Assembly (NCBI GenBank): GCA_965247955.1
Contig: OZ252042.1
Span: 1,968,323 to 2,032,322 of the forward strand
Direction: 5' to 3'
From: Vicinamibacterales bacterium
Lineage (GTDB): Bacteria > Acidobacteriota > Vicinamibacteria > Vicinamibacterales > UBA8438
Length of the DNA: 64,000 bases
In this document: piece by piece, positions 1,186 to 25,824 of the stretch
Layout of the letters: each line of letters begins with the position of its first letter
Position numbering within the stretch: the first letter of the stretch is position 1
Translations under genes and position numbers: made by a program
Notes under the pieces: generated by a model
The model's database searches: none
The model's input: the letters and a program-made list of their open reading frames with translations, nothing else
Told to the model about the DNA's origin: nothing

Positions 1186-1192
1186 CTGCTAA

Positions 1193-1645: not shown

Positions 1646-1662
1646 TGGTCAAGCCTCTGGAT

Positions 1663-2790: not shown

Positions 2791-2799
2791 AAGTCACCC

Positions 2800-3093
2800 T
2801 TAGTGGTAGTCTTCAACTTGTAGGATGGTTACTCTGTTCGGCTTGGATTCTGTGTCGATTGTAAAGACCAATCGCCATTGGTCGTTAATCCGAATCGAAC
2901 GTTCTTCACGTCGTCCTTTCAGCTTCTCGTAGTGCAGGCTCTTCCAGTTCCGCAGCGTTCGCTCGTCAGGTGCCTGTCGAATCACATGTAGTTTTCGCCT
3001 CAACGCTTTGATGACAGCAATCGGCAGTCGGGTCTCGGCGGCACGGTCCGTCTCGACAAGCGCAAGGGACGTGTCGCGGAACTCGATCTCCAT
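2800..3093 (-). CDS. higB: HigB-like (plasmid maintenance system killer) toxin
   Basis: 97 aa. The C-terminal RINDQWRLVF...V.ILQVEDYH pattern is typical of HigB/RelE-fold toxins. First gene of a 3-gene operon. Confidence 0.7.
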   Translation of the reverse strand: MEIEFRDTSLALVETDRAAETRLPIAVIKALRRKLHVIRQAPDERTLRNWKSLHYEKLKGRREERSIRINDQWRLVFTIDTESKPNRVTILQVEDYH

Positions 3094-3159
3094 CCAATCA
3101 CCGAAAACAGTATAGAGAAATACACTACTGAACGCAACTCGTTAAATTATCTTTTATGC

Positions 3160-3188
3160 TTGACATATCAGGTCTGGTTGATTACACT
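3160..3188 (+). promoter_or_regulatory. candidate sigma70-type promoter for the IS transposase (leaderless geometry)
   Basis: TTGACA (3160-3165), 17-nt spacer, TACACT (3183-3188). The ATG at 3196 lies 7 nt after the -10 element and has no SD. Confidence 0.4.
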
Positions 3189-3195
3189 TCGTCTC

Positions 3196-4038
3196 ATGAA
3201 TCGGCTAGACACGAAACGGCGGGCACAAGTCGTCGCCGCCCTAGTCGAAGGCAACAGCCTCCGGGCAACTGCCAGGATGACGGGCGTGGCTCGGATGACC
3301 GTCGAGAAGCTGCTGCGCGACTTGGGCGCAGCTTGTGCCGCGTACCAGGACGAGCATCTGCAGAATCTGCCCTGCCGCCGTATTCAGTGCGACGAGATCT
3401 GGTCGTTCGTGTACGCCAAAGCGAAGAACGTCGAGAGTGCGAAGGACGCGCCCGACGTGGCGGGCGACGTGTGGACTTGGACGGCCATTGATGCCGACAC
3501 CAAGCTGGTGCCATCGTGGCGCATCGGCTCGCGTGACTTGGCGACGGCCTATGACTTCATGCACGACCTTGCTGACCGGCTTCGGCACCGCGTGCAGCTC
3601 ACGACAGACGGCCACAAGCCCTACCTGGAGGCCATCGAGAGCGCGTTCAATTTGGACGTGGATTACGCGGTGCTCCAGAAGATTTACGGCGCGGACCCGC
3701 AGCCGCAGAAGCGGTACAGCCCTGCCAATTGCCTGGGCTACGACGTGAAGACGGTCACCGGCGAGCCGAACCCGAAGCACATCTCAACCAGCTTCGTTGA
3801 ACGGCAGAATCTCACGATGCGGATGAGCATGCGGAGATTCACGAGGCTGACCAACGCCTTCTCAAAGAAGGTCGAGATGCACGCGCACTCGGTGGCGCTG
3901 CATTTCATGCACTACAACTTCGTGAAGATCCACTCGACGCTGAGGACGACCCCGGCGCAGGCCGCTGGCGTGACCGACCGGCTGTGGGAAATTTCGGACC
4001 TCGTGGAATTGCTCGAAAGTACCGAGTCGTCAAACTAG
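3196..4038 (+). CDS. IS1-family DDE transposase (single-ORF type)
   Basis: 280 aa from ATG 3196; the ORF-track start at 3160 is a TTG inside the -35 element. N-terminal HTH. The C-terminal FVERQNLTMRMSMRRFTRLTNAFSKK motif is characteristic of IS1 transposases. The stop codon lies inside the right IR. Confidence 0.85.
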   Translation: MNRLDTKRRAQVVAALVEGNSLRATARMTGVARMTVEKLLRDLGAACAAYQDEHLQNLPCRRIQCDEIWSFVYAKAKNVESAKDAPDVAGDVWTWTAIDADTKLVPSWRIGSRDLATAYDFMHDLADRLRHRVQLTTDGHKPYLEAIESAFNLDVDYAVLQKIYGADPQPQKRYSPANCLGYDVKTVTGEPNPKHISTSFVERQNLTMRMSMRRFTRLTNAFSKKVEMHAHSVALHFMHYNFVKIHSTLRTTPAQAAGVTDRLWEISDLVELLESTESSN

Positions 4039-4054
4039 ACCACTACCAAGGAAT

Positions 4055-4392: not shown

Positions 4393-5367
4393 CTATTCCA
4401 CGAGGCGCAGCTGCGAGGGCGGGATACGAGAGGGTGAGGGAGAGAGCAGCAACGCGCCCTTTGGCGTCGAGTAGTGAAGGTCTGGCCAGGCGCTTTTAAT
4501 TTTCGTCAGCTCCCGAAGGCACTTCGTACGAAAGTCGTTCACGATGTTCGTATCGCTTACGTGGGCCGGGTTCGATCCGAACTGACGGTACAGTCGCGGC
4601 CACGTGAGGCGCAGCGGGCGCTTCAACGTGAACGTCCGGTAGGCGAGCCACATGTAGAGATCGAGGCCCAACGAGGATCGCTTCATAGTCTTCAGGATGT
4701 GCAGGTCGAGCGGCACGGGATGGCGAATGACTTCCTCGAAAAACTTCTCACCAAGTTCGATCTTGCTCTCCCACAGCGTGCGGTCGTCGGGACGCCGCGG
4801 ATGCCACCAAAACTCTGTCCGATCGGCGACCAGCGAATTGACGCTCACTTCGCCGTGCTCGTGTTCATAGACCAACTGGACATAAGCATTAAACAGCCGC
4901 CGCATCTGCTCTTGGAGCCGACTACGCACCGCGCCGCCGCTGTTGTAGACACCCACACTCCGCATGAACGCCGAGAGCGAATCGCCGAGGATGAGCTCGC
5001 GGCTTTGCGTCCGCACCGCTTCGGTGCAGACCCACGCCAGGAGCAGGCGCGGGAAGTTACCGTAGGGCAATTTGTTGTCAACCCCAGCGGTCATGGCTAG
5101 AGTGAGCGGCCCATTGCGCCGGACGTGCTGCAGGCGGTCGCCGGGGTCGGTGCGCGGCAACGAACAGAGCGCGAGCATCCGCGCCATGAAGCCCAGGTCG
5201 GCGTCCACTTCACTGACCGCGACGAGCTGCGTTACCTGGTCGAGTTGGGTGAAGTGGCGGCGAGCCTGGGGCGCGCGTTCTCGGCGCGTGGGCACCAGGA
5301 CGCCGGGCAGGTCGACACCGGCGACCAACTCGCCGAGGGGCACGAACCCGTCTCGTTTACGCGCCAC
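4393..5367 (-). CDS. repA: plasmid replication initiator RepA (RepA_C type), apparently intact
   Basis: 324 aa. Motifs LALCSLPRT, RNGP.TL and LPYGNFPRLLLAWVCTEAVRTQ are shared with three paralogues in the window. Only full-length copy. Confidence 0.8.
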   Translation of the reverse strand: MARKRDGFVPLGELVAGVDLPGVLVPTRRERAPQARRHFTQLDQVTQLVAVSEVDADLGFMARMLALCSLPRTDPGDRLQHVRRNGPLTLAMTAGVDNKLPYGNFPRLLLAWVCTEAVRTQSRELILGDSLSAFMRSVGVYNSGGAVRSRLQEQMRRLFNAYVQLVYEHEHGEVSVNSLVADRTEFWWHPRRPDDRTLWESKIELGEKFFEEVIRHPVPLDLHILKTMKRSSLGLDLYMWLAYRTFTLKRPLRLTWPRLYRQFGSNPAHVSDTNIVNDFRTKCLRELTKIKSAWPDLHYSTPKGALLLSPSPSRIPPSQLRLVE

Positions 5368-5665
5368 GGCTTTGTGTCCTGCCCGCGCCCTCGCGACCGC
5401 TCAGCCAGTCTTCCAAGAGCGCCTGGAGCAAGTCTGACACATCCCGATCGGTCGATTCGTCGAGCAAGGCTCGCATCACGTTCCGGTGCGTGTCTTTCCG
5501 CACGAGCGCGCTGATCTGTTTGTAGTCGGGGTTACTCCGCTTGCCGCGGCGCGGCCGACCAAGGCTGCGCACGGCCCCCCGTTGGTCGTCACGGTCTCCC
5601 TCCGCGACGGCGGTCGCGCCAGTCCTGGCGTCCATCAATCCCGCAAAACGATTGTGCTTACCCAT
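5357..5665 (-). CDS. ParG-like ribbon-helix-helix partition protein
   Basis: 102 aa from ATG 5665, overlapping the parA stop. Basic N-terminal tail, then an RHH-like segment (YKQISALVRKDTHRNVMRALLDES). Position is typical of type Ib par loci. Confidence 0.5.
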   Translation of the reverse strand: MGKHNRFAGLMDARTGATAVAEGDRDDQRGAVRSLGRPRRGKRSNPDYKQISALVRKDTHRNVMRALLDESTDRDVSDLLQALLEDWLSGREGAGRTQSRGA

Positions 5666-6260
5666 GTGCCAGAATCTCCGTTCCCAAAACCTCGTAGGCA
5701 CGCCATGCCCGCCGTGCCCGCCGATCCGTGACGGCATGTACCAAGACACCTTCACTCGCAGCCTTGTCGAAGGCTTTGAGGCGAGGAATTTCAGCCGTAA
5801 AGAGAGGGATCCCCTGCGCCACCAATGCCGCGCGGAGGTCTTGCCCGTCGGTTTCCGGTGGTGGCGGGACTTTCGTGAGCAGCACCCAGTAGTTCTTGGC
5901 CGCCAGGCCATGGAGGGTCTGCAGCGTCCGTTGCAAGGCGCGGGTGTCAAGGGCGGCCGGTACCGTGGGGATGATCAGCACATCACAGCCCTGGGCTAAC
6001 TGGGCCAGGTCCGCAGGGTCCGGCTGCGCGTCTGTATCAATGACGACATGGTCGAACTGCCGCGCTGTGTGGGTGCCTTCCGCGACATCGACAATCGCGA
6101 ACGGGAGCGATCCTCCGGCCGCGCCCCATTCGGTCGCGCTACGGTTGGGGTCTCCATCGATCAGCACGGTCGCCGCGCGCGTCTGGAAATACGCGGCGAG
6201 ATGCACGGCGGTCGTGGTCTTCCCGACGCCGCCCTTGTCCGCGGCGACCGTGATGTACAC
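5658..6260 (-). CDS. parA: ParA partition ATPase (small, type Ib)
   Basis: Deviant Walker A motif KGGVGKTT at the N-terminus. 200 aa. Confidence 0.85.
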   Translation of the reverse strand: MYITVAADKGGVGKTTTAVHLAAYFQTRAATVLIDGDPNRSATEWGAAGGSLPFAIVDVAEGTHTARQFDHVVIDTDAQPDPADLAQLAQGCDVLIIPTVPAALDTRALQRTLQTLHGLAAKNYWVLLTKVPPPPETDGQDLRAALVAQGIPLFTAEIPRLKAFDKAASEGVLVHAVTDRRARRAWRAYEVLGTEILAHG

Positions 6261-7268: not shown

Positions 7269-7529
7269 TCACTCACCACGGATTCTGGTGGCCTTTCCAC
7301 GTGACGCGAACAGTCCATCAAGCGCTTCTTCGAGAAGCGCCTGGACAGTGGTGCGTTCTTCGACAGCTAGGAATCGGAGCTGCTGGGCCACCTCGTCATC
7401 AAAGTAGCCTCCGATGTGACGTCGCGCCTTGCGGCCCGCGGTGGCTGGCGTGGACAGCGGTGCGGATTTGGGTGTGGTCTTCAGAGCTGCGGCGAATTTG
7501 TTTTGGTTCGTCATGCTGTGACCTTGCAT
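7269..7529 (-). CDS. ParG-like RHH partition protein
   Basis: 86 aa, overlapping the parA stop. RHH-like segment IGGYFDDEVAQQLRFLAVEERTTVQALLEEAL. Confidence 0.5.
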   Translation of the reverse strand: MQGHSMTNQNKFAAALKTTPKSAPLSTPATAGRKARRHIGGYFDDEVAQQLRFLAVEERTTVQALLEEALDGLFASRGKATRIRGE

Positions 7530-8146
7530 AGTTGCAGGTGTGCAGTTATGAAGTCGTGCAACTGTTCTATCTCAGTGGCAGCCTTGCCGTTGGGCTCAAT
7601 CTCTTGGGCGGCTTGGCCGGTGATGAGCGCTCGGGCCAGCGCCACGCGCTGGCCGAGACGTACAGGACAGACCTCAATAGCTAGATCGGTCAAGGTTGCC
7701 GCGGCATGATCGGCGTCGTGTCCAGCTGGCGCGACGGCATTCAGCACCACAAAGGTCGGCGTGCCAGTGGTGCGGACCAATCGCAGGGTGGATTGGATCG
7801 CCTCAAGGTCCATGATCGCGGTCCGACAAGGGATAAGCACGAGATCGGCGGCGTCAGCGACCTTCAGTGTGGCGTCGTTGTCATGAGGCGCCGTGTCCAG
7901 GTAGAGCATGTCACCCTCGGTTTGTCGCACACGGGCAATCTCCGGGGTGAGTCGGCTGGCGTGAGCCGAGAGGACGACAGGGAGCGCGGCCTCGCGGCGG
8001 TCCCTCCAACTCGCGGCGCTGGCTTGCGGGTCCAAGTCGATGATGGCGGTGTTCCGTCCCGCGCGGGTGGACGACACGGCCAGGTGCAAGGCGACGGTCG
8101 TCTTTCCGGCGCCCCCTTTCTGACTAATGATGGCAATGGTGTTCAT
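7511..8146 (-). CDS. parA: ParA partition ATPase
   Basis: MNTIAIISQKGGAGKTT Walker A motif. Start moved to ATG 8146 (ORF-track start is 8233). Confidence 0.85.
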   Translation of the reverse strand: MNTIAIISQKGGAGKTTVALHLAVSSTRAGRNTAIIDLDPQASAASWRDRREAALPVVLSAHASRLTPEIARVRQTEGDMLYLDTAPHDNDATLKVADAADLVLIPCRTAIMDLEAIQSTLRLVRTTGTPTFVVLNAVAPAGHDADHAAATLTDLAIEVCPVRLGQRVALARALITGQAAQEIEPNGKAATEIEQLHDFITAHLQLCKVTA

Positions 8147-8273
8147 CAGCGCAAGAAAGAATACCTGCACGGCTGCATGCCTGCAATAGTGAAGGTATTC
8201 CATCCTGCACGGAGGATATGTGCAGGTGTGCAAGATTGCATGTGTGCATGACTGTACCTGGGTGACCGCCGGG

Positions 8274-9037: not shown

Positions 9038-9970
9038 ATGAGCACAGACGAACAGCAGAAACGTGGCGGGTTCATTCCGGTCGGCCAGATGGCGGCGCGG
9101 CTGCCGGGCATCGACGGGCGGACCCGGTCAATGTCGGCAAACACCCGGAACCATTTCACTGTCCTGAAACAGATCGATCAACTCATTGAAGCGTCGGACG
9201 CGGAGCCGGATCTTGGCTTCCTGGCGCGTCTGATGGCGCTATGTAGCCTGCCGCGGACGAATCCGCGCCAGCGGACGCAGTACGTCCGGCGCAACGGGCC
9301 GTACACGCTCTACCTGACGGCGGGCGGCGGAAACAAACTGCCGTACGGGAACATCCCGCGCCTGCTCCTGGCATGGGCCTGTACGGAGGCGGTGCGAACG
9401 CAGCGCCGCGAGCTGGTCCTCGGTCGGTCGTTGTACGAGTTCATGCGCCGCCTCGGCATGGAGGATAGAAGCGGGGGCGTCAACGGGCAGCGGACACGGC
9501 TCCGTAATCAGATGACGCGGCTCTTTCGTTGCACGGTACAGCTCGTGCGGAGCGACGGCGATCACGAAGTCACGGTGTCGTCGCTGATCGCGGACAAGTC
9601 GGAATACTGGTGGCACGCGGCAGAAGGTCCTGATCGGCCGGGGCTGTTCGATTCCACGATCCGCCTCGGGGAAGAATTTTTCAACGAGGTCATCGCGCAC
9701 CCGATCCCGATCGACATGAACACCCTGCGCGCGCCGCTCTGCCTCTCCTGGCGTCAAGTCCTGCGCCAGTTCGGGGCCGATCCGGCGAAAGAGAGCTGTA
9801 AAGAGTCGGCGAAAGACTTCCGCCGGCAATGTCTGCGCGAAATGAAAAAAATTAAACGCGCATGGCCGGACCTGGAATACCGGACGGTCCGGGGTGGACT
9901 CGTCATCGAGCCCTGTCCGCCTCGCATCCCGCCCTCTACTCAGCTCCGTCTCATCGGGGACGGGGAGTAG
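9038..9970 (+). CDS. repA: RepA paralogue with an internal in-frame deletion
   Basis: 310 aa with the same motifs as 4393-5367. It lacks about 23 residues (MKRSSLGLDLYMWLAYRTFTLKR equivalent) between IDMNTLRA and PLCLSW, near nt 9730. Confidence 0.7.
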   Translation: MSTDEQQKRGGFIPVGQMAARLPGIDGRTRSMSANTRNHFTVLKQIDQLIEASDAEPDLGFLARLMALCSLPRTNPRQRTQYVRRNGPYTLYLTAGGGNKLPYGNIPRLLLAWACTEAVRTQRRELVLGRSLYEFMRRLGMEDRSGGVNGQRTRLRNQMTRLFRCTVQLVRSDGDHEVTVSSLIADKSEYWWHAAEGPDRPGLFDSTIRLGEEFFNEVIAHPIPIDMNTLRAPLCLSWRQVLRQFGADPAKESCKESAKDFRRQCLREMKKIKRAWPDLEYRTVRGGLVIEPCPPRIPPSTQLRLIGDGE

Positions 9971-10242
9971 GTCAAGGCAGCTCGTCGACCGCCGCGTCGA
10001 GCGCGCCGGCCGGAATCACCGGCCGGCCATAACTGCCAGCCCAAGCCGCCACGGAAAGCGCCGCTCACCCGAAGGGGCGCCGCGAAGCGGAGCACGGCGC
10101 AGCCGTTGACGGGCGCTGTGAATGGAGGCTCGTCCGGGTCTGAAACACGGCGCTGGCGCGCCGTTCGGCCGTGGGGTGGGTATGTTTGGCCGTCCGGCGC
10201 GCGGTCACCGCTCCTGTGGCCGCGTAGCGGCTCGGATGGGGA

Positions 10243-10350
10243 TTTTCCACAGATCACCTGTGAATCGAGGGGTTTTCCGTCGGTTAAACATCTCCCCCTT
10301 ACGAGGCCGATCTATCGGTTAAACATCTCCCCCTTACGAGGCCGATCTAT
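10243..10350. repeat. ori-like region B: conserved box plus a perfect 35-bp tandem duplication
   Basis: Box TTTTCCACAGATCACCTGTGAATCGAGGGGTTTTCC (10243-10278). Then CGGTTAAACATCTCCCCCTTACGAGGCCGATCTAT twice (10281-10315 and 10316-10350). The repeat core CGGTYAAAC is shared with region A iterons read on the minus strand. Confidence 0.6.
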
Positions 10351-10375
10351 CCATCACGGTCCAGAGCGCTCCGAT

Positions 10376-10560
10376 TCACCGGGCGAGAACCTTCTCGCCT
10401 TGCTCGCGCAACTGGCCCTGCGGCCCGACGTGCCTGTAGAGCGCGTCACGGGGTTGATCCGAGTTCGACGACAGAGATCGGACACGGAAGTGTCGCGGTG
10501 CGCCATCGCGGCCTGGGCCAGCCGCACCTGGGCTTTCGATAGCGCGAACTTCCTGCCGCC
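10376..10560 (-). pseudogene. remnant of a serine resolvase C-terminal HTH, frameshifted
   Basis: Two frames together read GRKFALSKAQVRLAQAAMAHRDTSVSDLCR and ALYRHVGPQGQLREQGEKVL. No catalytic domain is present. Confidence 0.5.
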
Positions 10561-10686
10561 GTGGCGTCCGTGCGCCCGCAACGCCGACGCGCATGAATTC
10601 CTGACAGCACGCCATCAAACCTAGCCATGGCCCGGGGTCCCGCAGCCGCCACTGACCTGCCCTCGGGGCAGGATCAGCGTGCCACG

Positions 10687-11094
10687 TCAATCTCGCCGTT
10701 GGCTAAAGACATAGTCCTGAGCCTCTTGGGGCTGGTGGCAGGAAAAGCAGGCGGTTTCGGCATTCGCACCCACCACCCGAGTGCCGGCGTCACCACCTCC
10801 GAATCCCTCGAAGCCCCAGCCACCCGTCGCCGGATAACGCTCCGAGTCCTTGTGCATCACGCCCAGCACCTTGCGTGCGCCCTCGGTGACCGCGTTGTCC
10901 GCGCGCACCGCCTCCAAGAGGTCGAAGGCAATCACAGCGCCGTCTGGGAAGCGTCCGGCTTGATAGCCGGTGACGGCTTCGTCATTGGCGTAAATGTGGT
11001 GAATGCCGCCGAAGGCCTCGAAGAGGGGATGCCCCTCCTCAATCACCATGCTCTTGATGTGCGACCAGTCACGGTACCCCGTCGGGTAGGGCAC
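10687..11094 (-). CDS. cytochrome P460-family protein
   Basis: CFSCH heme-attachment motif near the C-terminus and overall P460-like sequence. A hydrophobic signal-like segment continues in frame upstream of the first ATG, so the start is uncertain. Confidence 0.7.
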   Translation of the reverse strand: MPYPTGYRDWSHIKSMVIEEGHPLFEAFGGIHHIYANDEAVTGYQAGRFPDGAVIAFDLLEAVRADNAVTEGARKVLGVMHKDSERYPATGGWGFEGFGGGDAGTRVVGANAETACFSCHQPQEAQDYVFSQRRD

Positions 11095-11467
11095 TTCGGA
11101 CTGCCCTTCAACGACAGCGATGGCAGCCGTGACACTGATGGCGGTGAGCAGACGTGCGGCTGGTTTGTAGGTCGCCGCGCAAGGTGGCGATCGCGGTGGT
11201 GAGGTCGCCGCGCACTTTCATTGATACGCTCCTTCCGAGGCTTCGGTTTACCGTCAATCGGCCAACTCGCGTGATCCCCCCTACCCGAACACAACTCACG
11301 CGGGATGTGTTGCAACTTTCGACAAGCGGCAAGAGAGCGCTTGGGACAGCCTGCTCGCGGCGCTCCGTGCCGGTTGAAACCTGCCGCCATTTTCGTGCTC
11401 GTACGTGGCGTGGCTCGACCGCCCTTGACCGACCAAGTTTATCGGATATATACTTCATAGTTAATAA

Positions 11468-11482
11468 TGAGACTCAGTCTCA
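11468..11482. promoter_or_regulatory. palindromic operator candidate (Fur-box-like context)
   Basis: TGAGACT-C-AGTCTCA, a perfect 7-bp inverted repeat embedded in AATAATGAGACTCAGTCTCAATAATA. This is the only AT-rich patch between the divergent P460 and TonB-dependent receptor genes. Confidence 0.3.
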
Positions 11483-11739
11483 ATAATACACGCTCGCTGT
11501 CGCAGTGTGATGCCGTGCACACCTCCCTGCAGAGACGTCGCCTGTCACACACGGTGGAAAGGCTGATGTAGTGATTGAGGCCTGACTGAGGCAAGAAGAC
11601 GCTCGCCGGATGTGGTAGCACCCGGCGAGCTTGAACGAACGCACGGTCCACAGACCTGTCACACGCAACACGCGCGACGACGCTCGTCTTCCGCATTGTA
11701 CCGGCGAGTGGGTGTGGCGCGCAAACCAAGAGGAGCGCC

Positions 11740-14700
11740 ATGACTCACATCGCTCGGCTTCTGCTGTGCTCGACCTTCCTGCTCTCACCCGTCGGATCGA
11801 CGCTCGTGGCGGCGGCTGATGAGCCACTCGGCGTATTGGTCGTGGCCCACGGCTCGACGGCGGCGTGGAACGCCACAGTCGAGGCCGCCGTGACGATCAT
11901 GCAACAACACACGCCATCCCAAGCGGCGTACCTGATGGGGGCAAAGAACCGCACCCCGCAGGAGGCGTACGACGACTTGCTCGCGGCTGGCGTCCAGCGG
12001 GTGGTGATCGTGCCGCTCCTGGTGTCTTCCTATAGCTCCCACTACGAGCAGGTCCGCTTCATTGGGCGCCTGCGCGACGATTACCCGGGCTCCGACTGGA
12101 TGAACCTCACGCCGCTGCACGGGCCGGCTGACGTGGTCGGCGTCACGCCAGCGCTGGATGCCCATCCGATCCTCGCGGACATCCTGTCAGACCGAGCGCG
12201 GGCGCTCAGTCGCGATCCATCCACGGAAAGCCTCGTCATCGTGGCACACGGGCCGAACGGTGACGCGGACGCAGACCGGTGGATGGGCGTGATCCGAGAC
12301 CTTGGCGTCCAGATCCGGTCCCGTGTGCCGTTTCGGGAGATCGACGTCCGCCTCTTGCGGGACGATGCGCCAACACCGGTCAAAGACCAGGCGCTCGCGG
12401 AGTTCAGAGACTCGGTGGCCAGCCGTGCCGCGTCAGGACGCGTCGTTGTCGTGCCGCTCCTGCTCGGGCCGGGCCGCGTCGTCGACCAGATACCCAACGT
12501 ACTCACGGGATTGGAGTACCTCTGGGACGGTCGCCCCGTGCTCCCGGACAGCCGGATCGCTGACTGGGTCATGTCTCAGGTCGAGCGTGTCTCGGCGCAG
12601 CAGGCGGCGACCAGCCAGCAGTCGTCCGAACAGCGGGGGGGCATCCCTCCGGACGCCGCCCTCGTACCCGATACCGCGCAGCCGACTGACGATCCGCTGA
12701 CATTTTTCGAGTCCGTGACCGTCACGGCGACGCTCCGGCCGACACCGGTGCGGGATACCCCAGGCACGGTGACGGTCATCGACAGCGACGTCATACAGCG
12801 GAGGCAGTTCGAGACCTTCGCCGACCTCGTCAAGTACGAACCGGGGGTGTACGTCGAGAACAACGTGACCCGTCTGGGCCTCAACGGCTTCAATATCCGC
12901 GGCATCGGCGGGAATCGTGTCATGACACAGGTGGACGGCGTGCAGACGTCGGAGCAGTTCGACTTCGGCCCGTTCAACGCCCATCAAGTCGGACTCGATC
13001 TCGACGCGTTGCAATCCGTCGAGATCGTGCGGAGCGCGAACTCGGCGCTCTACGGGAGTGATGCCCTCGGCGGCGTCGTGTCGCTGTTCACGAAGGATCC
13101 CACTGACTACCTCCGCGGTCAGCGGTTCCACATCGGCGCCAAGACGACGTGGGATGGTCGCGCGGGCGATATCAGTGGGAACCTCACGCTGGCCGGGGGC
13201 ACCGAGCGGCTCCAAGCGTCGCTCTTTGCCAGCGTCAACCGCGGAAACGAAATCCGCAACAAAGGAACCGTCAAAACCACGGATGCCACCCGGACCGCGG
13301 CGAATCCACAAGACGTCCACAGCCAGCAATTCCTGGGCAAGGTCGTCTTGACAGCCACGCCCGGCAATATATGGCGCGTGGCCGCGGAGGTCTATGACAC
13401 TCGCGTCGACACGGAATGGTTCTCCGACATGGGCGTGACGCGCCTCGGCCCGTTTACCTATCACACGTTGGATTCGAGGGCGGTCGACACGCAGGCCCGC
13501 CTGCGTCTGTCGCTCGATCACACGCTGGTCGACCGGGCCGGCCTCGATCAGTTGTCGTGGCGTGTCTACGGTCAGCGTAACGACACGTCACAGGTCGTCG
13601 ACCGGGAGCGCATGACGTTCGCCTTCGGCCCGCCGACGCACTCGACGCGCCACGAGACGGTCGACTACGCGCAGTCTGGCTACGGCGGCTCGGCCCAGGG
13701 TCAGACGTGGTTGGGCGATCCGGACAACGGCGTGCTGGTCACGTTCGGTGCGAGCCACAAGGCCGACAGATTTGACATCCTGCGCGACCGGAGCGAGGTC
13801 AACCTGCAAACCGGGGCGCCTGTGCCAACGAGCTTGATCTTCCCGACCAAGTACTTCCCCGAGAGCGACGTGGCCGAAGCCGGCTCGTACGTCCAGGCGG
13901 AGATCCGGTTCGGCCGTGTCACGCTCGTGCCCGGGGTGCGGTATGACCACTTCACGCTCGACGCCAACCAGCGTGATCCAGTCTTCATCGCAAGCCTCAA
14001 CCCGGAGCCAGTCGACTTCTCCAACAGCGCCGTCTCGCCGAAGGTGGGCCTGGCGGCGCGGGTGACGGACGTTGTGACCATCCATGCCCAGTACGCGGGC
14101 GGATTTCGGGCGCCGGCCTACAGCGCCATCAACACCGGCTTCACCAATCCGCGCGGCGGCTACACGACGCTGCCGAATGCGCATCTCAGGGCCGAGACCA
14201 GCGACAACATCGAGGTCGGCGTGCGCACCGCGTTCGACCGCGCAAGCATCGGCGTGACCGCCTTCTCGAATCGGTACGATGACTTCATCGAGTCGACCCG
14301 CATCGGACTCAATCCGCGTACCCGGCTGCTTGAATTCCAGAGCCAGAACCTCCAAGAGGCGGAGATCAAGGGCGTTGAGCTGCGCGGTGAAGCGTACCTG
14401 ACCGACAGCGTGATGATTCGCGGGAGCTACGCGCGCATCGACGGCGTCGAGATCTTGAAGGACGCCACCGTCCCGCCACTCGCCGCCGAGACCCCGCTTG
14501 CGTCTATCGCTCCGAATGAAGGCGTGCTCGGCATCCGGTACGCCCACCCCTCCGGCCGCTGGGGCAGCGAGCTGTCGCTCCGGTTGGTCGAGTCGTACCA
14601 GGGTGCCCCTGATGAAGACCAGTTCGCGCCGACCGCCTACCAGGTCGTCGACCTCGTGAGCCACGTCTCGCTCGCGGAGGCGCTCACGTGGCGGTTTGGC

Positions 14701-14832
14701 CTGCTCAACCTGACGGACGCGACGTACTTCGAGTGGTGGAACGTGCGGGGACGTCAGGCGAACGACCCGGTGATCGACCGGTACTCAAGCCCCGGGATCG
14801 GCCTCGTCACCTCCCTGGGGTACGACTGGTAG
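11740..14832 (+). CDS. CbiX/SirB-like chelatase domain fused to a TonB-dependent receptor
   Basis: 1030 aa. Signal peptide. Two CbiX-type halves (GVLVVAHGS...VIVPLLVSS and SLVIVAHGP...VVVVPLLLGPG) in residues about 30-290. Ser/Gln linker. Plug (ESVTVTATLRPT...TVIDSDVIQRRQ). Beta-barrel ending in the aromatic terminus SLGYDW. Confidence 0.85.
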   Translation: MTHIARLLLCSTFLLSPVGSTLVAAADEPLGVLVVAHGSTAAWNATVEAAVTIMQQHTPSQAAYLMGAKNRTPQEAYDDLLAAGVQRVVIVPLLVSSYSSHYEQVRFIGRLRDDYPGSDWMNLTPLHGPADVVGVTPALDAHPILADILSDRARALSRDPSTESLVIVAHGPNGDADADRWMGVIRDLGVQIRSRVPFREIDVRLLRDDAPTPVKDQALAEFRDSVASRAASGRVVVVPLLLGPGRVVDQIPNVLTGLEYLWDGRPVLPDSRIADWVMSQVERVSAQQAATSQQSSEQRGGIPPDAALVPDTAQPTDDPLTFFESVTVTATLRPTPVRDTPGTVTVIDSDVIQRRQFETFADLVKYEPGVYVENNVTRLGLNGFNIRGIGGNRVMTQVDGVQTSEQFDFGPFNAHQVGLDLDALQSVEIVRSANSALYGSDALGGVVSLFTKDPTDYLRGQRFHIGAKTTWDGRAGDISGNLTLAGGTERLQASLFASVNRGNEIRNKGTVKTTDATRTAANPQDVHSQQFLGKVVLTATPGNIWRVAAEVYDTRVDTEWFSDMGVTRLGPFTYHTLDSRAVDTQARLRLSLDHTLVDRAGLDQLSWRVYGQRNDTSQVVDRERMTFAFGPPTHSTRHETVDYAQSGYGGSAQGQTWLGDPDNGVLVTFGASHKADRFDILRDRSEVNLQTGAPVPTSLIFPTKYFPESDVAEAGSYVQAEIRFGRVTLVPGVRYDHFTLDANQRDPVFIASLNPEPVDFSNSAVSPKVGLAARVTDVVTIHAQYAGGFRAPAYSAINTGFTNPRGGYTTLPNAHLRAETSDNIEVGVRTAFDRASIGVTAFSNRYDDFIESTRIGLNPRTRLLEFQSQNLQEAEIKGVELRGEAYLTDSVMIRGSYARIDGVEILKDATVPPLAAETPLASIAPNEGVLGIRYAHPSGRWGSELSLRLVESYQGAPDEDQFAPTAYQVVDLVSHVSLAEALTWRFGLLNLTDATYFEWWNVRGRQANDPVIDRYSSPGIGLVTSLGYDW

Positions 14833-15079
14833 TGGCGGCCAACGAACCAGGTCGGACCGTGAAACGCCTGTCTGACCATCGTCACGAAGGAGAGGCGTGG
14901 GCCAAAGGGTCGGCGCGGGCCGCGTGCGCGCGGCGGCGGCGAGAGAACTGGCGGCTGAAGCTGAAGCGTGAGATCTCGTCAAAAGCCGCGGCCGGGTTCG
15001 AGCATGACCGCAACCGAGACAAGAGCAGTCATGGTGAAACTCTTCGCCGCGCGCGGACGGCTCCGATGATCTCCAGAGG

Positions 15080-16086: not shown

Positions 16087-18051
16087 TCACGCGACTCCAG
16101 CCAGCACAGAGAGCCCGTCGGTGTGCTGTAGGGCTACCAGATCTCCCAACGCCGTTGCCCAGTGGAGGACGTTCAGCGTATCCAGACCGCTGATGATCGT
16201 CAGGTTACCCAGAACGAAGACCGGCCAGAACCAGCGATTACGCGGAAGTACAGCGTTGAACGCCACGGTCATGGGCAAAAGTACGCGCGTCGCCGCGTAA
16301 GGGTATCCGACCCATACTGCCGGTCCGAGGACGACCATCAGAGCACACGATGCAATCCCGACGCGCCACCACGCGTTGGTCCAGGCACGCGATACGACCA
16401 GCACGACGGCCTGCGTCCCCAGACTGATCAGCGCAAGCAGGTTGAACCACGCAAGAGACGAGGGTTCTTCTCGCAACTCGGATAACGCCGCGCCCCACTC
16501 CGTGAAATATCCAGTGAAGGGTAGGCCGAAGTTCCTGGTTCCCGTGGTGCTCCCGGATACGGCGTCCCCACTCCACACATATAACATCCATAGCGCCAGC
16601 GGCCCGGCGATCAGAAACGTACCAACGCACAGTTCGCGCCAACTATGCCGGCGAAAGGCGTCAGGACTGCAGAGCACCGCACTCCATAACAGGTTGGTCT
16701 CCTTGGCAAGACCGGCGAGCCCGACAAGAGCCGCGGCGCGGCCGGTTCGCCCGCGTTCGACGGCGAGTACGGTCAGCACAAGCAACAGCAGGCTCGGCGC
16801 ATCCGGCACCGCTCTGACGACCGAGAAGATGGCGCCTTGACTGAACAGGCATCCAAACCAGAGACAGAAGCTCTTGAAGTCCAGCGGCGGAAACCACCGC
16901 ATCAGCAGCAGGGCTACCACGAGCCAGAACACGGCGTTCTGAATCGCGTAGGCATGAACGATCCAGTGCGGCTGCCCGAGACCGAACAGGAAGGCCGTCC
17001 AGGAAAAAAGAATCCGCCGCGCCCGATAGGATGGGTTGTCGAGCGCCTCGACGGTGGCGGGGTCGAGCAGGAGAGGGTCAACCGCCAACTGTGCGTAGAA
17101 CTGGCCATCGTAGCCGCCCGGCGAGAAATGAAGCGGAACATCGCGGAGAGCCGGGACCAACCGGTCCTGCAAGTCGGCGTTGAAGTAGATGAAGCGTGTA
17201 AAGCCAGTCTCGGGATCGTGAAACATCGCAATCCCGGCGACGAACAGCACCACCGACGCCACATAGAGCAGCGGGACGCGGCGTGCCCACACATGGAGCA
17301 GCGCTAGCTGGGACTTCCAGAACCAAACCTCGAGTGTCGGGCAGTACAGCAGGATAAGAAGCACAACAAACGTATGACCAGCCAGGAGAACTCCGAAGTC
17401 GGAAACCCATGGAGCCACGATGGCCGCGGCCAGGAACAGGCAGACCAGCGCCGCGACGACAACGTAGGTGACACGGCGGACAGTGTTCCTGACGGTGCGC
17501 GTTGGGTCGCCGGGAAACAGGAGCATGAGCACCAACAGCGCCACGCTAAGCAGATTTGGCACGGGAGGGGCGGGCGCAACACCGATCGGGACGATCATGA
17601 ACTCGAACAGTCCACGCGAGAATCCGTGGACGTTGGCGACTTCTAGGAACGTGAGCGACCATCCGTCGCCATCGCTGGTGATCTCAACTAGATCACCAGC
17701 GCTCAGTACGGCGCCATCGGGAAGGCTGAGATCGACCCGAGTTTCCCGGCCGGTCACGAGCGGAACATCGGCAAGCGGGCTGCCGTCAACGACGATCCGC
17801 GCAGTCCGCGACACCGATCCATCTAGAGCCAGTCGGAGGACCACGGCGACCGGTTGACCCGACAAGGAGAACAAATCAGGCAACTGAACGGCAACAGCGC
17901 CGTCTGACGCTTCCAGTTCCGCATGTACGATGCCGAAGCGCAGGCGCTCGAAGGTCGTGTAGACCCGAGTGTGAAGGACGCCGGCGCAGACGCACGCGAG
18001 CAGAAGCGCGACGACCCGGCGCCGCGGTCCGCTTGTTTCCAGCAATGCCAT
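16087..18051 (-). CDS. polytopic membrane protein, possible GT-C-type glycosyltransferase
   Basis: Many hydrophobic helices. The GGYDGQFYAQLA motif is reminiscent of PMT_2/DUF2029-type enzymes. Lies directly upstream of the GT2 remnant. Start uncertain because the ORF track extends to 18099 over an integrase remnant. Confidence 0.45.
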   Translation of the reverse strand: MALLETSGPRRRVVALLLACVCAGVLHTRVYTTFERLRFGIVHAELEASDGAVAVQLPDLFSLSGQPVAVVLRLALDGSVSRTARIVVDGSPLADVPLVTGRETRVDLSLPDGAVLSAGDLVEITSDGDGWSLTFLEVANVHGFSRGLFEFMIVPIGVAPAPPVPNLLSVALLVLMLLFPGDPTRTVRNTVRRVTYVVVAALVCLFLAAAIVAPWVSDFGVLLAGHTFVVLLILLYCPTLEVWFWKSQLALLHVWARRVPLLYVASVVLFVAGIAMFHDPETGFTRFIYFNADLQDRLVPALRDVPLHFSPGGYDGQFYAQLAVDPLLLDPATVEALDNPSYRARRILFSWTAFLFGLGQPHWIVHAYAIQNAVFWLVVALLLMRWFPPLDFKSFCLWFGCLFSQGAIFSVVRAVPDAPSLLLLVLTVLAVERGRTGRAAALVGLAGLAKETNLLWSAVLCSPDAFRRHSWRELCVGTFLIAGPLALWMLYVWSGDAVSGSTTGTRNFGLPFTGYFTEWGAALSELREEPSSLAWFNLLALISLGTQAVVLVVSRAWTNAWWRVGIASCALMVVLGPAVWVGYPYAATRVLLPMTVAFNAVLPRNRWFWPVFVLGNLTIISGLDTLNVLHWATALGDLVALQHTDGLSVLAGVA

Positions 18052-18070
18052 GACGGTGCGGAGGAGAGAT

Positions 18071-18478
18071 CTAGCTCGCGGTGCGGAATCGTAGGTCACG
18101 ACGGACGCGGATCATGCGACACTCAGCTCCGGGCGGCTTTGGTAAAGGCGGGAACGCCCTCCGCTTGTCGGCGAGGGGGTCTCCGCCCGAACGGGCTAGC
18201 TTGCGGTTGGCGAGGGCTAGCTCGCGGGCTTCGGCCAAGGAGACGAGCCCGGCGGCGCCAAGTCCCATCTCGCGGCGGCGTCCGCGGATGACGAGCCGCT
18301 GGATCCAGCTTCTCGTGCCGGTGGGCTGCACGAACAGGTACAACCCGTTGCCGTCGGCGTGCCGTCCTGGCGGCGCGGAGCGGACGAAGGCGGCAGTGAG
18401 CGCCTTGTCGGAATGGCGTCCTCGGCGCTTGGTTCGTGGGGGTCTGGCGGCGGAATAGACTACAACATTCATTCCCAC
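18071..18478 (-). pseudogene. tyrosine integrase remnant (DUF4102 arm-binding domain only)
   Basis: GNGLYLFVQPTGTRSWIQRLVIRGRRREMGLG...SLAEARELA. The catalytic domain is absent. Confidence 0.65.
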
Positions 18479-18719: not shown

Positions 18720-18781
18720 AAGCGCATATTGTTATCAGCGTATTGCTTTATACAATTACACTGCGTTACGATTACGCTTGT

Positions 18782-19426
18782 ATGAGCGTAATCACCTTTG
18801 TCACCCAAAAAGGCGGCAGCGGTAAGACCACTCTCGTCCTGTCCTGTGCGGTGGCCGCCGACGAACTCGGCGTCCGGGTCCTTATCCTGGACATGGACCC
18901 GCAAAAGACCGCCGAGTCCTGGTATCAAGCGCGTGAATCGTCGACGCCGAAGCTGGCAGCCGTCACGGCCGCCGAACTCCAGACTGCCATCAGGGGCGGT
19001 CGCGAGCGCTTTGACGTGATCCTGATCGACACTCCCGGCCGCGATGAACCAAGCACGGCTGCGGCAATCCGCCATGCAGATTTGTGCCTGATCCCCTGCC
19101 GGCCGACATCGGCTGACATGCAGGCCACGCCACCAACTGTGGCCACCATTAATTGCCTTGGCAAGGTGAGCGCGTTCGTTTTGAATCAGACGCCGCCACG
19201 AGGTTACCGAATCCACGAAGCGGCCAGAGGCTTAAGTGTCCTGGGGCTGGTCGCCCCGGTGCACGTCGTTGCGCGTAGCGCTTTTCAGGACACTCACGGG
19301 ATGGGCCTCACAGTCACCGAGTCCGAACCCGATGGGAAAGCAGCCTCCGAAATCAGGAAACTGTGGCTCTGGATCGCCAAGAAATTGGAGAAAGTGAACG
19401 ATGTCCCCAAAACGCACGTCTCTTGA
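18782..19426 (+). CDS. parA: ParA partition ATPase
   Basis: MSVITFVTQKGGSGKTT Walker A motif. Start moved to ATG 18782. Confidence 0.85.
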   Translation: MSVITFVTQKGGSGKTTLVLSCAVAADELGVRVLILDMDPQKTAESWYQARESSTPKLAAVTAAELQTAIRGGRERFDVILIDTPGRDEPSTAAAIRHADLCLIPCRPTSADMQATPPTVATINCLGKVSAFVLNQTPPRGYRIHEAARGLSVLGLVAPVHVVARSAFQDTHGMGLTVTESEPDGKAASEIRKLWLWIAKKLEKVNDVPKTHVS

Positions 19427-20299: not shown

Positions 20300-20532
20300 A
20301 ACTGCCGCGGGGCGTTTCCGCCCGCGAACTCATCCGCGCACTCAAAGCCGATGGATTCGTTCATGTCCGAACGAGAGGAAGCCACCGCAGATTTCATCAC
20401 CCTGATGGTCGCCGCGCTTCTGTGTCCTACCATCAGGAATCCGCACCCCTTCCCATGAACACCCTGCGGAGCGTTATCGTGCTCCAAGCCCGATGGGAAG
20501 AGGACGATCTTCGACGACTGAGACTTCGATGA
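20296..20532 (+). CDS. hicA: HicA toxin
   Basis: SARELIRALKADGFVHVRTRGSHRRFHHPDGR is typical of HicA/YcfA. Confidence 0.75.
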   Translation: MKLPRGVSARELIRALKADGFVHVRTRGSHRRFHHPDGRRASVSYHQESAPLPMNTLRSVIVLQARWEEDDLRRLRLR

Positions 20533-21752
20533 GTAAAGACGACGAGCACTGCGGCGGGTTCGTGCCCCTCGGCGATATGGCCGGGGCGGTCGACCTGTCC
20601 CCCGCCACGCCCCAAGCCCGGCACCACTTCACCCGTCTCGACCAGATCGACCAGCTTGTTGGCGCGAGCGAAGCGGAACCAGATATCGGCTTCATGGCGC
20701 GGCTGCTCGCGCTGTGCAGTCTACCGCGCACCAATCCAGGGGACCGGAAAGAGTACGTCCGGCGCAACGGGCCATACACCCTGATCATGAGTGCCGGCGG
20801 CCACCCGGCGCGACTGCCCTACGGTATCCTTCCGCGGCTGCTGCTGGCATGGGTGTGCTCAGAGGCGGTACGGACGCAGCGCCGCCAACTGGTCCTCGGG
20901 CGGTCGCTGTATGAGTTCATGCGCAAGCTCGGCATGGAGAATCGAAGCGGGGGCATCAACGGCGAGCGGACGTGCCTCAAGAATCAAATGCGCCGGCTCT
21001 TTCGGTGTTCGGTCCAGCTCGTCTACGTCGAGGCGCAGCATGAAGTAATCGTACAGTCCTTCATTGCAGACCGCGCCGAGTTCTGGTGGGACGCGACGCG
21101 AGACTCCGGGCCGTCGTTGTGGGACAGCACGATCGAGCTTGGCGAGAAATTCTTTCACGAAATCATCGCGCACCCTGTACCGATCGATCTGCACATCCTT
21201 AAGGCGATAAAGCGGTCGCCCCTCGGCCTCGACCTGTACCTCTGGCTCACGTACCGGACGTTCAATCTTAAGACGCCGCTGTGCCTGTCCTGGCGGCAGC
21301 TCTACCGGCAATTTGGCGCGGACCCGGCGCGCGTGACGGCCGGACGCGTGTTCGACGCGAGCCGGGTCCGCGTGATTGACGGAGACACGATCGAGGTCGA
21401 GGGCACGACGGCGACGGTTCGGCTGATGGGGATTGACACGCCGGAGACAAAGCATCCGACGCGGCCGGTCGAGTACTACGGCGCGGAGGCGGCGGCACTC
21501 GCGGAGACGGTGCTATCAGGGATGACGGTAGACCTGACGACAGACCGGACCGGGGACCGGGAGGATGTGTACGGTCGGTGGCTGCGGTACGTCGTGGTGC
21601 GGGGCGTTGATTTCAACGCGGCGCTCGTGCGGGGAGGGTACGCGCGAGCGGTCCGGGGATTTGCGTATGCCCGTCGGGCGGAGTTCATCGGGCTTGAAAA
21701 TGAGGCGCGATCGCGCGGCGTGGGTTTGTGGGAGGCACGAGGGCCGGAGTAG
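20529..21752 (+). CDS. chimeric RepA (C-terminally truncated) fused to a staphylococcal-nuclease (SNase) domain
   Basis: RepA motifs run up to RQFGADPARVT (about aa 270-280). Then VIDGDTIEV...VRLMGIDTPETKHP...YGRWLRYV...GLWE, typical of the thermonuclease fold. Start at ATG 20529 overlaps the hicA stop. Confidence 0.7.
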   Translation: MSKDDEHCGGFVPLGDMAGAVDLSPATPQARHHFTRLDQIDQLVGASEAEPDIGFMARLLALCSLPRTNPGDRKEYVRRNGPYTLIMSAGGHPARLPYGILPRLLLAWVCSEAVRTQRRQLVLGRSLYEFMRKLGMENRSGGINGERTCLKNQMRRLFRCSVQLVYVEAQHEVIVQSFIADRAEFWWDATRDSGPSLWDSTIELGEKFFHEIIAHPVPIDLHILKAIKRSPLGLDLYLWLTYRTFNLKTPLCLSWRQLYRQFGADPARVTAGRVFDASRVRVIDGDTIEVEGTTATVRLMGIDTPETKHPTRPVEYYGAEAAALAETVLSGMTVDLTTDRTGDREDVYGRWLRYVVVRGVDFNAALVRGGYARAVRGFAYARRAEFIGLENEARSRGVGLWEARGPE

Positions 21753-25768: not shown

Positions 25769-25824
25769 AAGGAATGGGTAGTGGTCTAGTTTGAAAAGCG
25801 CGGCCCCCTGGACAGATCGTCTCG

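Follow-up and report, generated by a model that had tools for sequence, protein, structure and literature searches.

A heme-type TonB-dependent receptor fused to a CbiX-like chelatase domain in a soil acidobacterium

A stretch of 64,000 nucleotides from a soil acidobacterium of the Vicinamibacterales (Acidobacteriota), hereafter the window, carries a gene in which a CbiX-type class II chelatase domain is fused to the N-terminus of a complete TonB-dependent receptor. This fusion is real and recurrent and is not an artefact of assembly. The sequence data further suggest that the receptor is of the heme type and that the chelatase-like domain would reside in the periplasm, where it would receive the imported tetrapyrrole at the exit of the barrel. 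We propose that the protein performs a periplasmic, receptor-tethered handling of tetrapyrroles with dechelation as the favoured activity, a chain of arguments to which, taken as a whole, we give a probability of roughly 0.5; its architectural part we hold with high confidence. The stricter proposal, that a class II chelatase working in reverse has been built into a TonB-dependent transporter and strips the iron from heme at the barrel exit, is tentative, and we would place its odds somewhat below even.

The gene is a single uninterrupted open reading frame (ORF) with an ATG start, and its 1030-residue product ends in SLGYDW (coordinates are collected in Table 1). Pfam recognizes CbiX (PF01903, 40.4 bits against a gathering cutoff of 22) in two stretches, the better one covering residues 37-150, followed by the Plug domain and by the barrel of TonB-dependent receptors (PF00593, residues 567-991, E 7.5e-51), and beta strands are predicted across residues 460-1028 in a full-length AlphaFold2 model of low confidence. 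A sequence-only reading of this DNA had described a signal peptide, a two-lobed CbiX/SirB-like domain (about residues 30-290; ~29-290 here), a Ser/Gln linker, a plug and a barrel; all are present according to Pfam and AlphaFold2, with Pfam matches for each of the CbiX, Plug and TonB-dependent receptor families, and the motifs it had named were found (AHGS at 36-39, AHGP at 169-172 and the terminal SLGYDW), as was SSYSSH at 96-101. The signal peptide, as read from the sequence, has neither a lipobox nor a twin-arginine motif; the hydropathy maximum of the protein lies at the N-terminus only, and residues 1-26 score low in predicted local distance difference test (pLDDT) in the AlphaFold2 model. 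Between the CbiX domain and the TonB box lies a variable, flexible linker of 16-36 residues. ESVTVTAT is a putative TonB box, assigned by its pattern, which agrees with that of BtuB, FhuA and FepA.

That the two halves form one gene is established by several lines of evidence. With a CbiX-domain profile, 191 relatives were detected among the GTDB species-representative genomes, and 80 loci were kept. (i), intact ORFs of 1009-1030 aa with the same junction occur in 10 loci (L010-L012, L015-L020 and L022; 9 records of metagenome-assembled genomes, MAGs) from Vicinamibacterales / 'Ca. Marinacidobacterales', two of them (L018 and L019) being copies in one chromosome and the closest, L022, being 99% identical in the CbiX-domain protein and ~97% identical in nucleotides over the gene; the reading frame of the window matches all the intact orthologs. 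(ii), a search with the full-length protein returned 16 clusters (at 90% identity) combining CbiX, plug and barrel, one of which comprises 193 member sequences. The survey of the fusion that the earlier reading had called for thus shows recurrence at both levels. (iii), inspection of the junction at 12.55-12.75 kb revealed no stop, frameshift or second signal peptide: the receptor half lacks a signal peptide of its own, and the +1 frame holds stops, with neither a signal peptide nor an alternative-frame start. (iv), the ratio of nonsynonymous to synonymous substitution rates (dN/dS) between the window and its orthologs is 0.17-0.30 for CbiX, 0.19-0.31 for the barrel and, at informative divergence, 0.15-0.30 for the plug (the 97%-identical L022 pair, with a plug dS of 0.009, is uninformative). 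The linker alone is relaxed, with dN/dS up to ~1.5 and a length polymorphism of 20 residues among orthologs. Purifying selection therefore acts to an equal degree (dN/dS ~0.2) on the CbiX and the receptor parts, which are maintained in the fused state.

Some relatives recovered in the first homolog search are fragments whose tails match alternative frames, and the sole contig checked among them (L009) is a 4x-coverage long-read assembly; to judge from these frames, the fragmented relatives are frameshift errors. An artefactual ORF, arising from a chimeric assembly or from a sequencing frameshift in the G7 run that joined two genes, is next to impossible: the linker does contain this homopolymer and many close relatives in low-coverage long-read assemblies are indeed broken by frameshifts, but neither accounts for the 10 intact orthologs and 16 protein clusters, for a receptor half devoid of a signal peptide and a +1 frame with stops, for purifying selection on both halves or for the other fusion variants (L025-L027, L023 and L028) that stem from short-read MAGs. 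One ortholog, L012, is a mosaic relative to the window, its CbiX part being 91.6% identical in nucleotides (dS 0.19) and its barrel 79.8% (dS 0.74), which points to recombination of the fusion gene with paralogous receptors; an additional, stand-alone CbiX, of the operon-partner type described below, lies 4 kb upstream in L012.

The N-terminal domain has the fold of a class II chelatase. A confident AlphaFold2 model for residues 1-300, based on 25 homologs (pLDDT 90, predicted template modelling score 0.84), shows two Rossmann-like lobes and a central cleft, and its Foldseek neighbours in the PDB are class II chelatases only: SirB is the best (E 3.6e-10, template modelling score 0.72), the others being DR2241, CpfC/HemH, the Desulfovibrio periplasmic CbiK, Porphyromonas FetB and CbiK. 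The CbiX-type fold suggested by the earlier reading is accordingly backed by the Pfam profile and by the comparison of the model. A single-sequence PDB search with the N-lobe gave DARPin matches only, which were judged spurious. A profile alignment to CfbA, on which the mapping of residues to SirB and CfbA relies, equates His37 with His9 and Met66 with Glu42 and places His101 within one residue of His75, the SirB equivalents of this CfbA triad being His10, Glu43 and His76 (PMC11301274). In the second lobe, SirB has Arg134 and Leu200, and the glutamate is not conserved in all CfbA enzymes (PMC11301274). Among 150 representatives, His37 is histidine in 91%, position 66 is Met in 61% and Glu in 23%, the second histidine lies at position 101 in 49% and at position 98 in 35%, His170 of the second lobe is histidine in 89% and Gly171 is glycine in 99%. 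Met66 belongs to a nearly invariant L-M-G motif and, in the model, shares the inter-lobe cleft with His170.

Judging from the alignment, the window domain retains the metal-binding histidine pair of the CbiX/SirB class together with a histidine of the opposite lobe that SirB has lost, and a thioether replaces the supporting carboxylate. This pattern fits a metalloporphyrin-handling site and is compatible either with catalysis or with His/Met heme binding. The domain thus shares with the CbiX, SirB and CfbA sirohydrochlorin chelatases the Pfam family, the two-lobed fold and the histidine pair; unlike these cytoplasmic biosynthetic enzymes with a His-Glu-His site, it is exported, has Met for Glu, an extra second-lobe histidine and an LRDDAP motif specific to the exported CbiX family. 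No cytoplasmic siroheme, B12 or F430 context is found; instead there is a signal peptide with a receptor fusion or a receptor operon. All the NCBIfam chelatase models score far below their cutoffs on the window domain (34 bits against 120).

The receptor half is supported as heme-type by its sequence. NCBIfam TIGR01786 (hemoglobin/transferrin/lactoferrin-type receptors) matches residues 325-1019 with 354.5 bits, above its cutoff of 323.75, and TIGR01785 reaches 313 bits, slightly below its cutoff of 316.85, while the BtuB models, with a cutoff of 599.7 bits, give the window protein 102.8. Among solved structures, the closest homolog is PhuR, a heme receptor of Pseudomonas (8THE; residues 326-1028, E 2.6e-81). 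Tyr808 aligns with Tyr529 of PhuR and PNAHL is a variant of its PNPNL motif; Tyr529 is the axial heme ligand in the structure solved by cryo-electron microscopy (PMC10418163). Plug and barrel, TonB box, a score above a subfamily cutoff and an FRAP/NPNL-type loop, the features of TonB-dependent heme receptors, are therefore all found here, and the heme-type label is supported for the unfused parent as well. Like PhuR, the window receptor has an FRAP...Tyr...PNxxL loop; unlike it, it carries an N-terminal CbiX part to which nothing in PhuR corresponds. PhuR works with the PhuTUV ATP-binding cassette (ABC) importer and a cytoplasmic heme oxygenase. The earlier description of the receptor as heme/corrinoid-type holds for its heme part, through TIGR01786 and the FRAP/Tyr/PNxxL loop, and not for its corrinoid part, given the BtuB scores and the lack of any Rfam match to a cobalamin riboswitch in the conserved leader. 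In other lineages, the receptors of L001 and L037 (Gemmatimonadota) and of the fusions L023, L026 and L028 fall below every curated cutoff; B12 and heme models score about equally on L001, L023, L026 and L037, and the heme models score higher on L028. For the family as a whole, the safe label of the partner receptors, as far as their sequences go, is tetrapyrrole-type receptor.

The association between exported CbiX proteins and TonB-dependent receptors extends well beyond this gene. The two are linked in 51 of the 80 GTDB loci: CbiX is fused to, or lies directly before, a receptor in 17, a receptor lies directly upstream on the same strand in 32 (13 of them also with HmuY) and downstream in 2; no receptor was detected in 21 and the locus is cut by a contig end in 8. 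In Gemmatimonadaceae the order is CbiX-HmuY-receptor (HmuY identified at E 3.6e-21) and in other Gemmatimonadota it is HmuY-receptor-CbiX. HmuY is absent from the window and, where it is present (the 13 loci and L001-L003), CbiX is a separate gene. The gene for an HbpS-like haem-degrading protein follows one stand-alone CbiX member. The precedent of separate proteins invoked by the sequence-only reading turns out to be stronger than it had stated, since the same exported CbiX family adjoins receptors, often with HmuY, in both Gemmatimonadota and Acidobacteriota.

Three further fusion variants exist in other Acidobacteriota: proteins of ~1007-1069 aa with the order CbiX-linker-CarboxypepD_reg-TonB box-plug-barrel (L025-L027, L006/P0013, P0220 and P0259), short direct fusions of ~900-910 aa (L023, P0219 and P0229) and a 979-aa fusion from Thermoanaerobaculia (L028). 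Their CbiX domains are 55-58% (L023, L025-L027) or 40% (L028) identical to that of the window, and their receptor parts only 25-35% identical to the window receptor; members of one CbiX clade are thus attached to widely differing barrels. The lineage of the window frequently has unfused receptors of ~774 aa that share 70-79% identity with the receptor half of the fusion protein, and in both of the unfused-receptor loci examined (L090/L091) the operon consists of the receptor, a 68-aa ORF (orf68) and a secreted stand-alone CbiX (299-300 aa) with 36-37% identity to the fused domain. The fused domain itself falls into another clade; its closest relatives there, at 55-61% identity, stand alone or are fused differently, and a stand-alone one, P0014 (57% identity), lies 48 bp after a receptor. 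An origin by simple read-through of neighbouring genes is ruled out for this lineage by the unfused order, receptor-orf68-CbiX, and by the low identity of the operon CbiX.

Two side observations concern these loci. The small orf68 (...LAVYQCGHGLLHLRVNRVTLTL...), which looks cytoplasmic and has no match in Pfam or NCBIfam, comes immediately after the receptor or fusion gene in several lineages; it is present in L022 and L023 and missing downstream of the window gene, where an IS6 element is found instead. In some genomes the fusion gene is followed, ~1 kb further downstream, by a second and divergent CbiX paralog that shares 27-31% identity with the fused domain, and a free CbiX beside a tethered one suggests non-redundant roles.

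These proteins belong to a large exported family. When 1.84 billion representatives were searched exhaustively with a profile, 2208 proteins matched at E <= 1e-3, 535 of them at E <= 1e-30; they comprise ~300-aa stand-alone proteins, receptor fusions, tandem CbiX-CbiX proteins and large multidomain proteins in which one or two CbiX domains are combined with SLH, dockerin, Cu-amine-oxidase-N, cadherin-like, GLUG, FmdE, NosD or ZinT domains (P0211-P0216, P0306, P0329, P0334 and P0344). The latter are apparently cell-surface chelatase-like versions in Gram-positive-type organisms. All of the 25 aligned family members have an N-terminal signal peptide and most lack a lipobox cysteine. No NCBIfam model covers the family, whose members are labelled 'sirohydrochlorin cobalto/ferrochelatase' in databases.

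A low-resolution scheme may be drawn from these results. The gene would be transcribed from a sigma-70-like promoter with a palindromic Fur-box-like operator, so that control by iron is probable. The protein would be exported by the Sec system, the barrel and plug inserting into the outer membrane and the CbiX domain being left in the periplasm; N-terminal extensions that precede the TonB box, such as the signalling domains of FecA and FpvA and the N-terminal extension of the SusC type, are periplasmic, and the periplasmic placement put forward by the earlier reading agrees with this established topology. By homology, extracellular heme would bind at the FRAP-Tyr808-PNxxL loop, and TonB would pull on its box to open the plug. 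The tethered CbiX domain would then take the tetrapyrrole into a cleft lined by His37, His101, His170 and Met66, where the iron would most likely be removed, only Fe2+ crossing the inner membrane and protoporphyrin being left behind. Dechelation appears the most likely outcome because the chelatase histidine set is conserved, because a heme ABC importer or a heme oxygenase is not linked in the examined gene tables, and because the HmuY-receptor-CbiX sets mirror HmuY-HmuR-HmuS, a similar role having been proposed for IhtB/FetB beside IhtA. HmuS strips the iron from heme after import by HmuR (PMC12583661), and iron removal has been proposed for IhtB/FetB, a CbiK-like protein that partners the receptor IhtA (PMC12094164). 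The examined gene tables contain no heme ABC importer and no heme oxygenase, and no ihtCDE-like ABC transporter is linked in the window flanks or in the stand-alone operons; L016 has an ABC-type exporter ORF ~3.8 kb upstream, past an IS (insertion sequence) transposase, which is not conserved in L011 or in the window. The fusion protein and its neighbours contain no CobN/ChlH domain.

Several points weigh against this proposal. The replacement of the glutamate by Met66 favours, on sequence grounds, a non-catalytic ligation of heme, Met-His ligation being typical of heme binding and not of metal extraction. The full-length AlphaFold2 model (mean pLDDT 58, plug 20-25) does not resolve a docking of the CbiX domain under the barrel. 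Dechelation of ferric heme requires a periplasmic reductant and none is encoded nearby. The window copy stands alone among IS and plasmid genes, with neither orf68 nor an inner-membrane partner, and the partner receptors of other lineages are as BtuB-like as they are heme-like and remain below cutoffs. Finally, FetB, the nearest analogue studied so far, acts in vitro as a forward Co/Mn chelatase with no reverse activity on hemin (PMC13065792).

The main and a serious rival, although in our judgement unlikely, is that the CbiX domain serves without catalysis as a catcher or chaperone of heme with His/Met axial ligation, which would block back-diffusion and toxicity and deliver the heme intact to an unlinked binding protein of the periplasm or transporter of the inner membrane. 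It would explain why Met66 takes the place of the Glu ligand in the cleft that it shares with His170, and it has precedents: the class II-like head/neck module of HmuS binds heme through Met79/His254 (PMC12583661), the periplasmic CbiK of D. vulgaris and FetB bind heme or metalloporphyrin, and FetB lacks the reverse reaction on hemin (PMC13065792). Yet both chelatase histidines and the third one are conserved across phyla, which binding alone does not require, the examined loci have no linked heme ABC transporter or heme oxygenase, and a tethered 1:1 binder would be saturated after one transport cycle unless heme were passed on fast.

Forward chelation or a metal swap is improbable. The receptor would import metal-free or non-iron porphyrins, such as coproporphyrin or protoporphyrin IX (PPIX) from the soil, into which a metal would be inserted or exchanged in the periplasm. 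The conserved histidine pair and the fusion of Gram-positive-type relatives to the metal-handling ZinT, NosD and FmdE domains are consistent with this possibility, as is the Co/Mn chelatase activity of FetB, which is needed for the production of Mn-PPIX (PMC13065792). However, the receptor carries the axial tyrosine ligand for heme iron, the HmuY and HbpS-like neighbours indicate heme itself, and a periplasmic metalation of porphyrins would be of no obvious benefit to a heme prototroph.

A role as sensor or regulator, in which the ligand-loaded domain would mask or expose the TonB box or signal inward like the STN domain of FecA, is very improbable. The domain does come as near as 16 residues to the TonB box, and transducer-type receptors hold their signalling domains at this very position; but neither a Pfam STN domain nor a nearby sigma/anti-sigma pair is present, and CbiX is a free periplasmic protein in most lineages, a misfit with purely intramolecular regulation. 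Least plausible among the functional alternatives is a corrinoid or cobalt system, importing cobalamin or a precursor, with CbiX as cobaltochelatase or cobalt-binding module: CbiX enzymes are classically sirohydrochlorin cobaltochelatases and the partner receptors of other lineages score equally high on BtuB and heme models, but the window protein falls far short of the BtuB cutoff while exceeding that of a heme family, its 250-nt leader has no cobalamin riboswitch, the FRAP/Tyr/PNxxL loop is present and HmuY is linked in relatives.

The dechelation proposal places the fusion within a known kind of system, a TonB-dependent receptor paired with an extracytoplasmic protein of the chelatase superfamily, as in Iht and Hmu. 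The Iht system of P. gingivalis (IhtA with IhtB/FetB, PDB 9B86) similarly pairs an extracytoplasmic class II chelatase fold with such a receptor for the acquisition of heme or iron, and FetB matches the modelled window domain (Foldseek E 2.6e-5; profile E 1.6e-4). FetB, which is of the CbiK (PF06180) branch, differs in being a lipoprotein of the outer membrane in its own right, presumably exposed at the cell surface, and in being encoded in an operon with an ABC transporter (PMC12094164), whereas the window domain is of the CbiX branch, has no lipobox, is joined covalently to the periplasmic end of the receptor and has no linked ABC transporter. The hmuYRSTUV loci of Bacteroidota resemble the HmuY-receptor-CbiX operons of the Gemmatimonadota relatives in combining HmuY, a receptor and a member of the chelatase superfamily; HmuS, however, is a separate CobN/ChlH-like class I polypeptide of ~1400 aa, the window domain being a fused class II domain of ~260 aa, and no HmuT, U or V homologs are linked to it. 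CbiK(P) of D. vulgaris (PDB 2XVX), for which a role in heme or iron transport rather than B12 synthesis has been proposed, is likewise a secreted, heme-binding chelatase of class II and matches the window domain structurally, but it belongs to the CbiK branch, forms a stand-alone tetramer and is not known to be fused to a receptor.

Relative to the literature that we found, the covalent fusion, its placement in a periplasmic N-terminal extension, and a CbiX-branch family with a His/Met/His site spread in Acidobacteriota and Gemmatimonadota are new. No description of a CbiX-receptor fusion was found, in a literature search of incomplete coverage that provides absence of evidence only. To our knowledge, the N-terminal extensions of TonB-dependent transporters have so far been signalling or carboxypeptidase-regulatory-like domains and not enzyme folds; the fusion adds a domain type to them and, if the proposal is true, it would be the first such transporter with a cargo-processing enzyme in its periplasmic extension. 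It would then also constitute a one- or two-gene route to heme iron in aerobic soil Acidobacteriota and Gemmatimonadota without heme ABC importer or heme oxygenase, and, as a class II enzyme, would parallel the class I dechelatase HmuS, itself a recent discovery. The extraction of heme iron without heme oxygenase is an active question, the function of HmuS having been established in 2024-2025 and that of IhtB/FetB being debated; here the fusion provides evidence of the Rosetta-stone type, tying an exported class II chelatase physically to the periplasmic face of a heme receptor. The fusion further delineates a large, still unnamed family of secreted CbiX proteins in Acidobacteriota, Gemmatimonadota and Gram-positive-type organisms, annotated as 'sirohydrochlorin chelatase'; their assignment to B12 or siroheme biosynthesis is probably wrong and, were the proposal correct, the whole family (~535 members at E <= 1e-30) would be periplasmic or cell-surface dechelatases rather than biosynthetic enzymes. 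The small soluble domain (~260 aa) is well suited to tests of reverse chelatase chemistry.

Nucleotide homology with all the relatives is limited to ~11412-14861 (to 15077 for L009), that is to the promoter, the leader and the gene. Homology begins just upstream of the promoter element, which is kept in 8 of 10 aligned ortholog upstream regions. The AT-rich palindrome that follows the -10 box occurs once in the window against 0.12 expected by chance and is a perfect 13-1-13 palindrome in L011; its outer arms, ATAATGA and TCATTAT, resemble those of a Fur box with a wider spacing, and it is a candidate operator, probably conferring iron control. A stringent pattern matched the promoters of the window and L011 only, diverged versions being present in the other aligned fusion-gene promoters, and a pattern search did not find the palindrome upstream of the unfused receptor operon in L090/L091. 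No Rfam family matched the ~250-nt leader, so that a known riboswitch identity was rejected. Its stem is GC-rich, and the unfused operon has a different conserved leader (GAGACGGGCGTCCCCGCA...GGGAGTATAGGCAATG, ~7880-8000 in L090/L091); either leader could be an unrecognised regulatory RNA.

Table 1. Features of the fusion gene, its product and its surroundings, with related features of other loci (residue numbers refer to the fusion protein)
Feature	Coordinates	Strand	Details and evidence
Sigma-70-like promoter, TTGACC-18 nt-TATACT	window 11425..11454	+	consensus scan, 10/12 matches
AT-rich palindrome TAATAATGAGACTCAGTCTCAATAATA, candidate operator	window 11462..11488	.	just downstream of -10; conserved in orthologs
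Conserved 5' leader, ~250 nt	window 11489..11739	+	12-bp stem-loop 11601-11630; ribosome-binding site GAGGAG 11730-11735; ortholog alignment
Fusion-protein coding sequence	window 11740..14832	+	1030 aa; ORF call, Pfam, NCBIfam, PhuR match
Sec-type signal peptide MTHIARLLLCSTFLLSPVGSTLVAAA	window 11740..11817	+	residues 1-~26; read from sequence
CbiX N-lobe	window 11824..12219	+	residues ~29-160; His37, Met66, Ser96-Ser97, His101; Pfam, model, CfbA profile alignment
CbiX C-lobe	window 12220..12609	+	residues ~161-290; His170-Gly171-Pro172, LRDDAP at 206-211; Pfam, model, Foldseek, conservation
Low-complexity Ser/Gln/Pro linker	window 12610..12687	+	residues ~291-316; G7 run at 12635-12641; pLDDT <50
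Conserved DDPLTFFESVTVTAT segment with putative TonB box ESVTVTAT	window 12688..12732	+	TonB box at residues 324-331; kept in fused and unfused relatives
Plug domain	window 12748..13077	+	residues 337-446; Pfam PF07715, E 2.3e-24
Beta-barrel, aromatic C-terminus YDW	window 13117..14829	+	residues ~460-1030; Pfam PF00593 and PhuR alignment
Heme-receptor signature loop	window 14104..14187	+	FRAP 789-792, Tyr808, PNAHL 812-816; sequence motif and PhuR alignment
RepA_C genes	window 4393-5367, 9038-9970, 20493-21752	-, +, +	one fused to a staphylococcal-nuclease domain
ParA-like genes	window 5658-6260, 7511-8233, 18743-19426	-, -, +	
orf68	L091 10352-10558; L090 10430-10636; L022 9066-9242; L023 4876-5058; also L065/L066		
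Second CbiX paralog	L016, L018, L019 ~10082-10819; L020 10206-10943; L028 10333-10782		

The flanks of the gene consist of mobile DNA, with three RepA_C and three ParA-like genes, IS1- and IS6-type transposases, an integrase and phage genes; the relatives too are flanked by transposases, and some genomes have two copies (L013/L014, L018/L019). The RepA_C and ParA-like genes, all within 17 kb, look like stacked remnants of plasmids or integrative elements. A perfect (100%) direct repeat of 3151 bp, containing an HTH_3 gene and an IS1-like transposase (window 897-4047 and 25770-28920), brackets a segment of 21.7 kb with the fusion gene, three RepA/ParA modules and the integrase, and could reflect either a composite-transposon-like structure or an assembly duplication.

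The earlier reading had noted a cytochrome P460 gene divergently upstream. The ORF is there (10687-11094, minus strand), but it is not a conserved neighbour, the homology with relatives beginning at ~11412, and a functional link was rejected for this reason and for the absence of P460 from any related fusion locus. The ORF spans the whole Pfam model, starts with GTG and has no signal peptide; a signal-peptide-like PAARLLTAISVTAAIAV lies in frame upstream without a canonical start, a stop being found 41 codons upstream, and the gene may be damaged or have an unusual start. In L007/L008, a P460 gene recognized by Pfam (L007 6841-7455) is found at a distance of 2 kb from a stand-alone CbiX homolog, which we treat for now as a coincidence.

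Some other features of the loci can be mentioned. Just upstream of the unfused operon, L091/L092 (4346-7350) encode another TonB-dependent receptor followed by a PepSY_TM protein, a layout which we take to be that of a FoxB-like periplasmic siderophore reductase; with further receptors downstream of the operon, the region looks like an iron-acquisition island. In the window, 16087-18099 (minus strand) encodes a multi-pass membrane protein of 670 aa, and a homologous 652-aa ORF is positioned at 328-2286 in L011; Pfam assigns neither of the two to a family. Phage-type genes at 31584-33155 and 43769-48019 of the window include one with the C-terminal domain of a terminase large subunit and one for a tape-measure-like protein of 1416 aa; a prophage or phage-plasmid region therefore takes up roughly 30-50 kb of the window.

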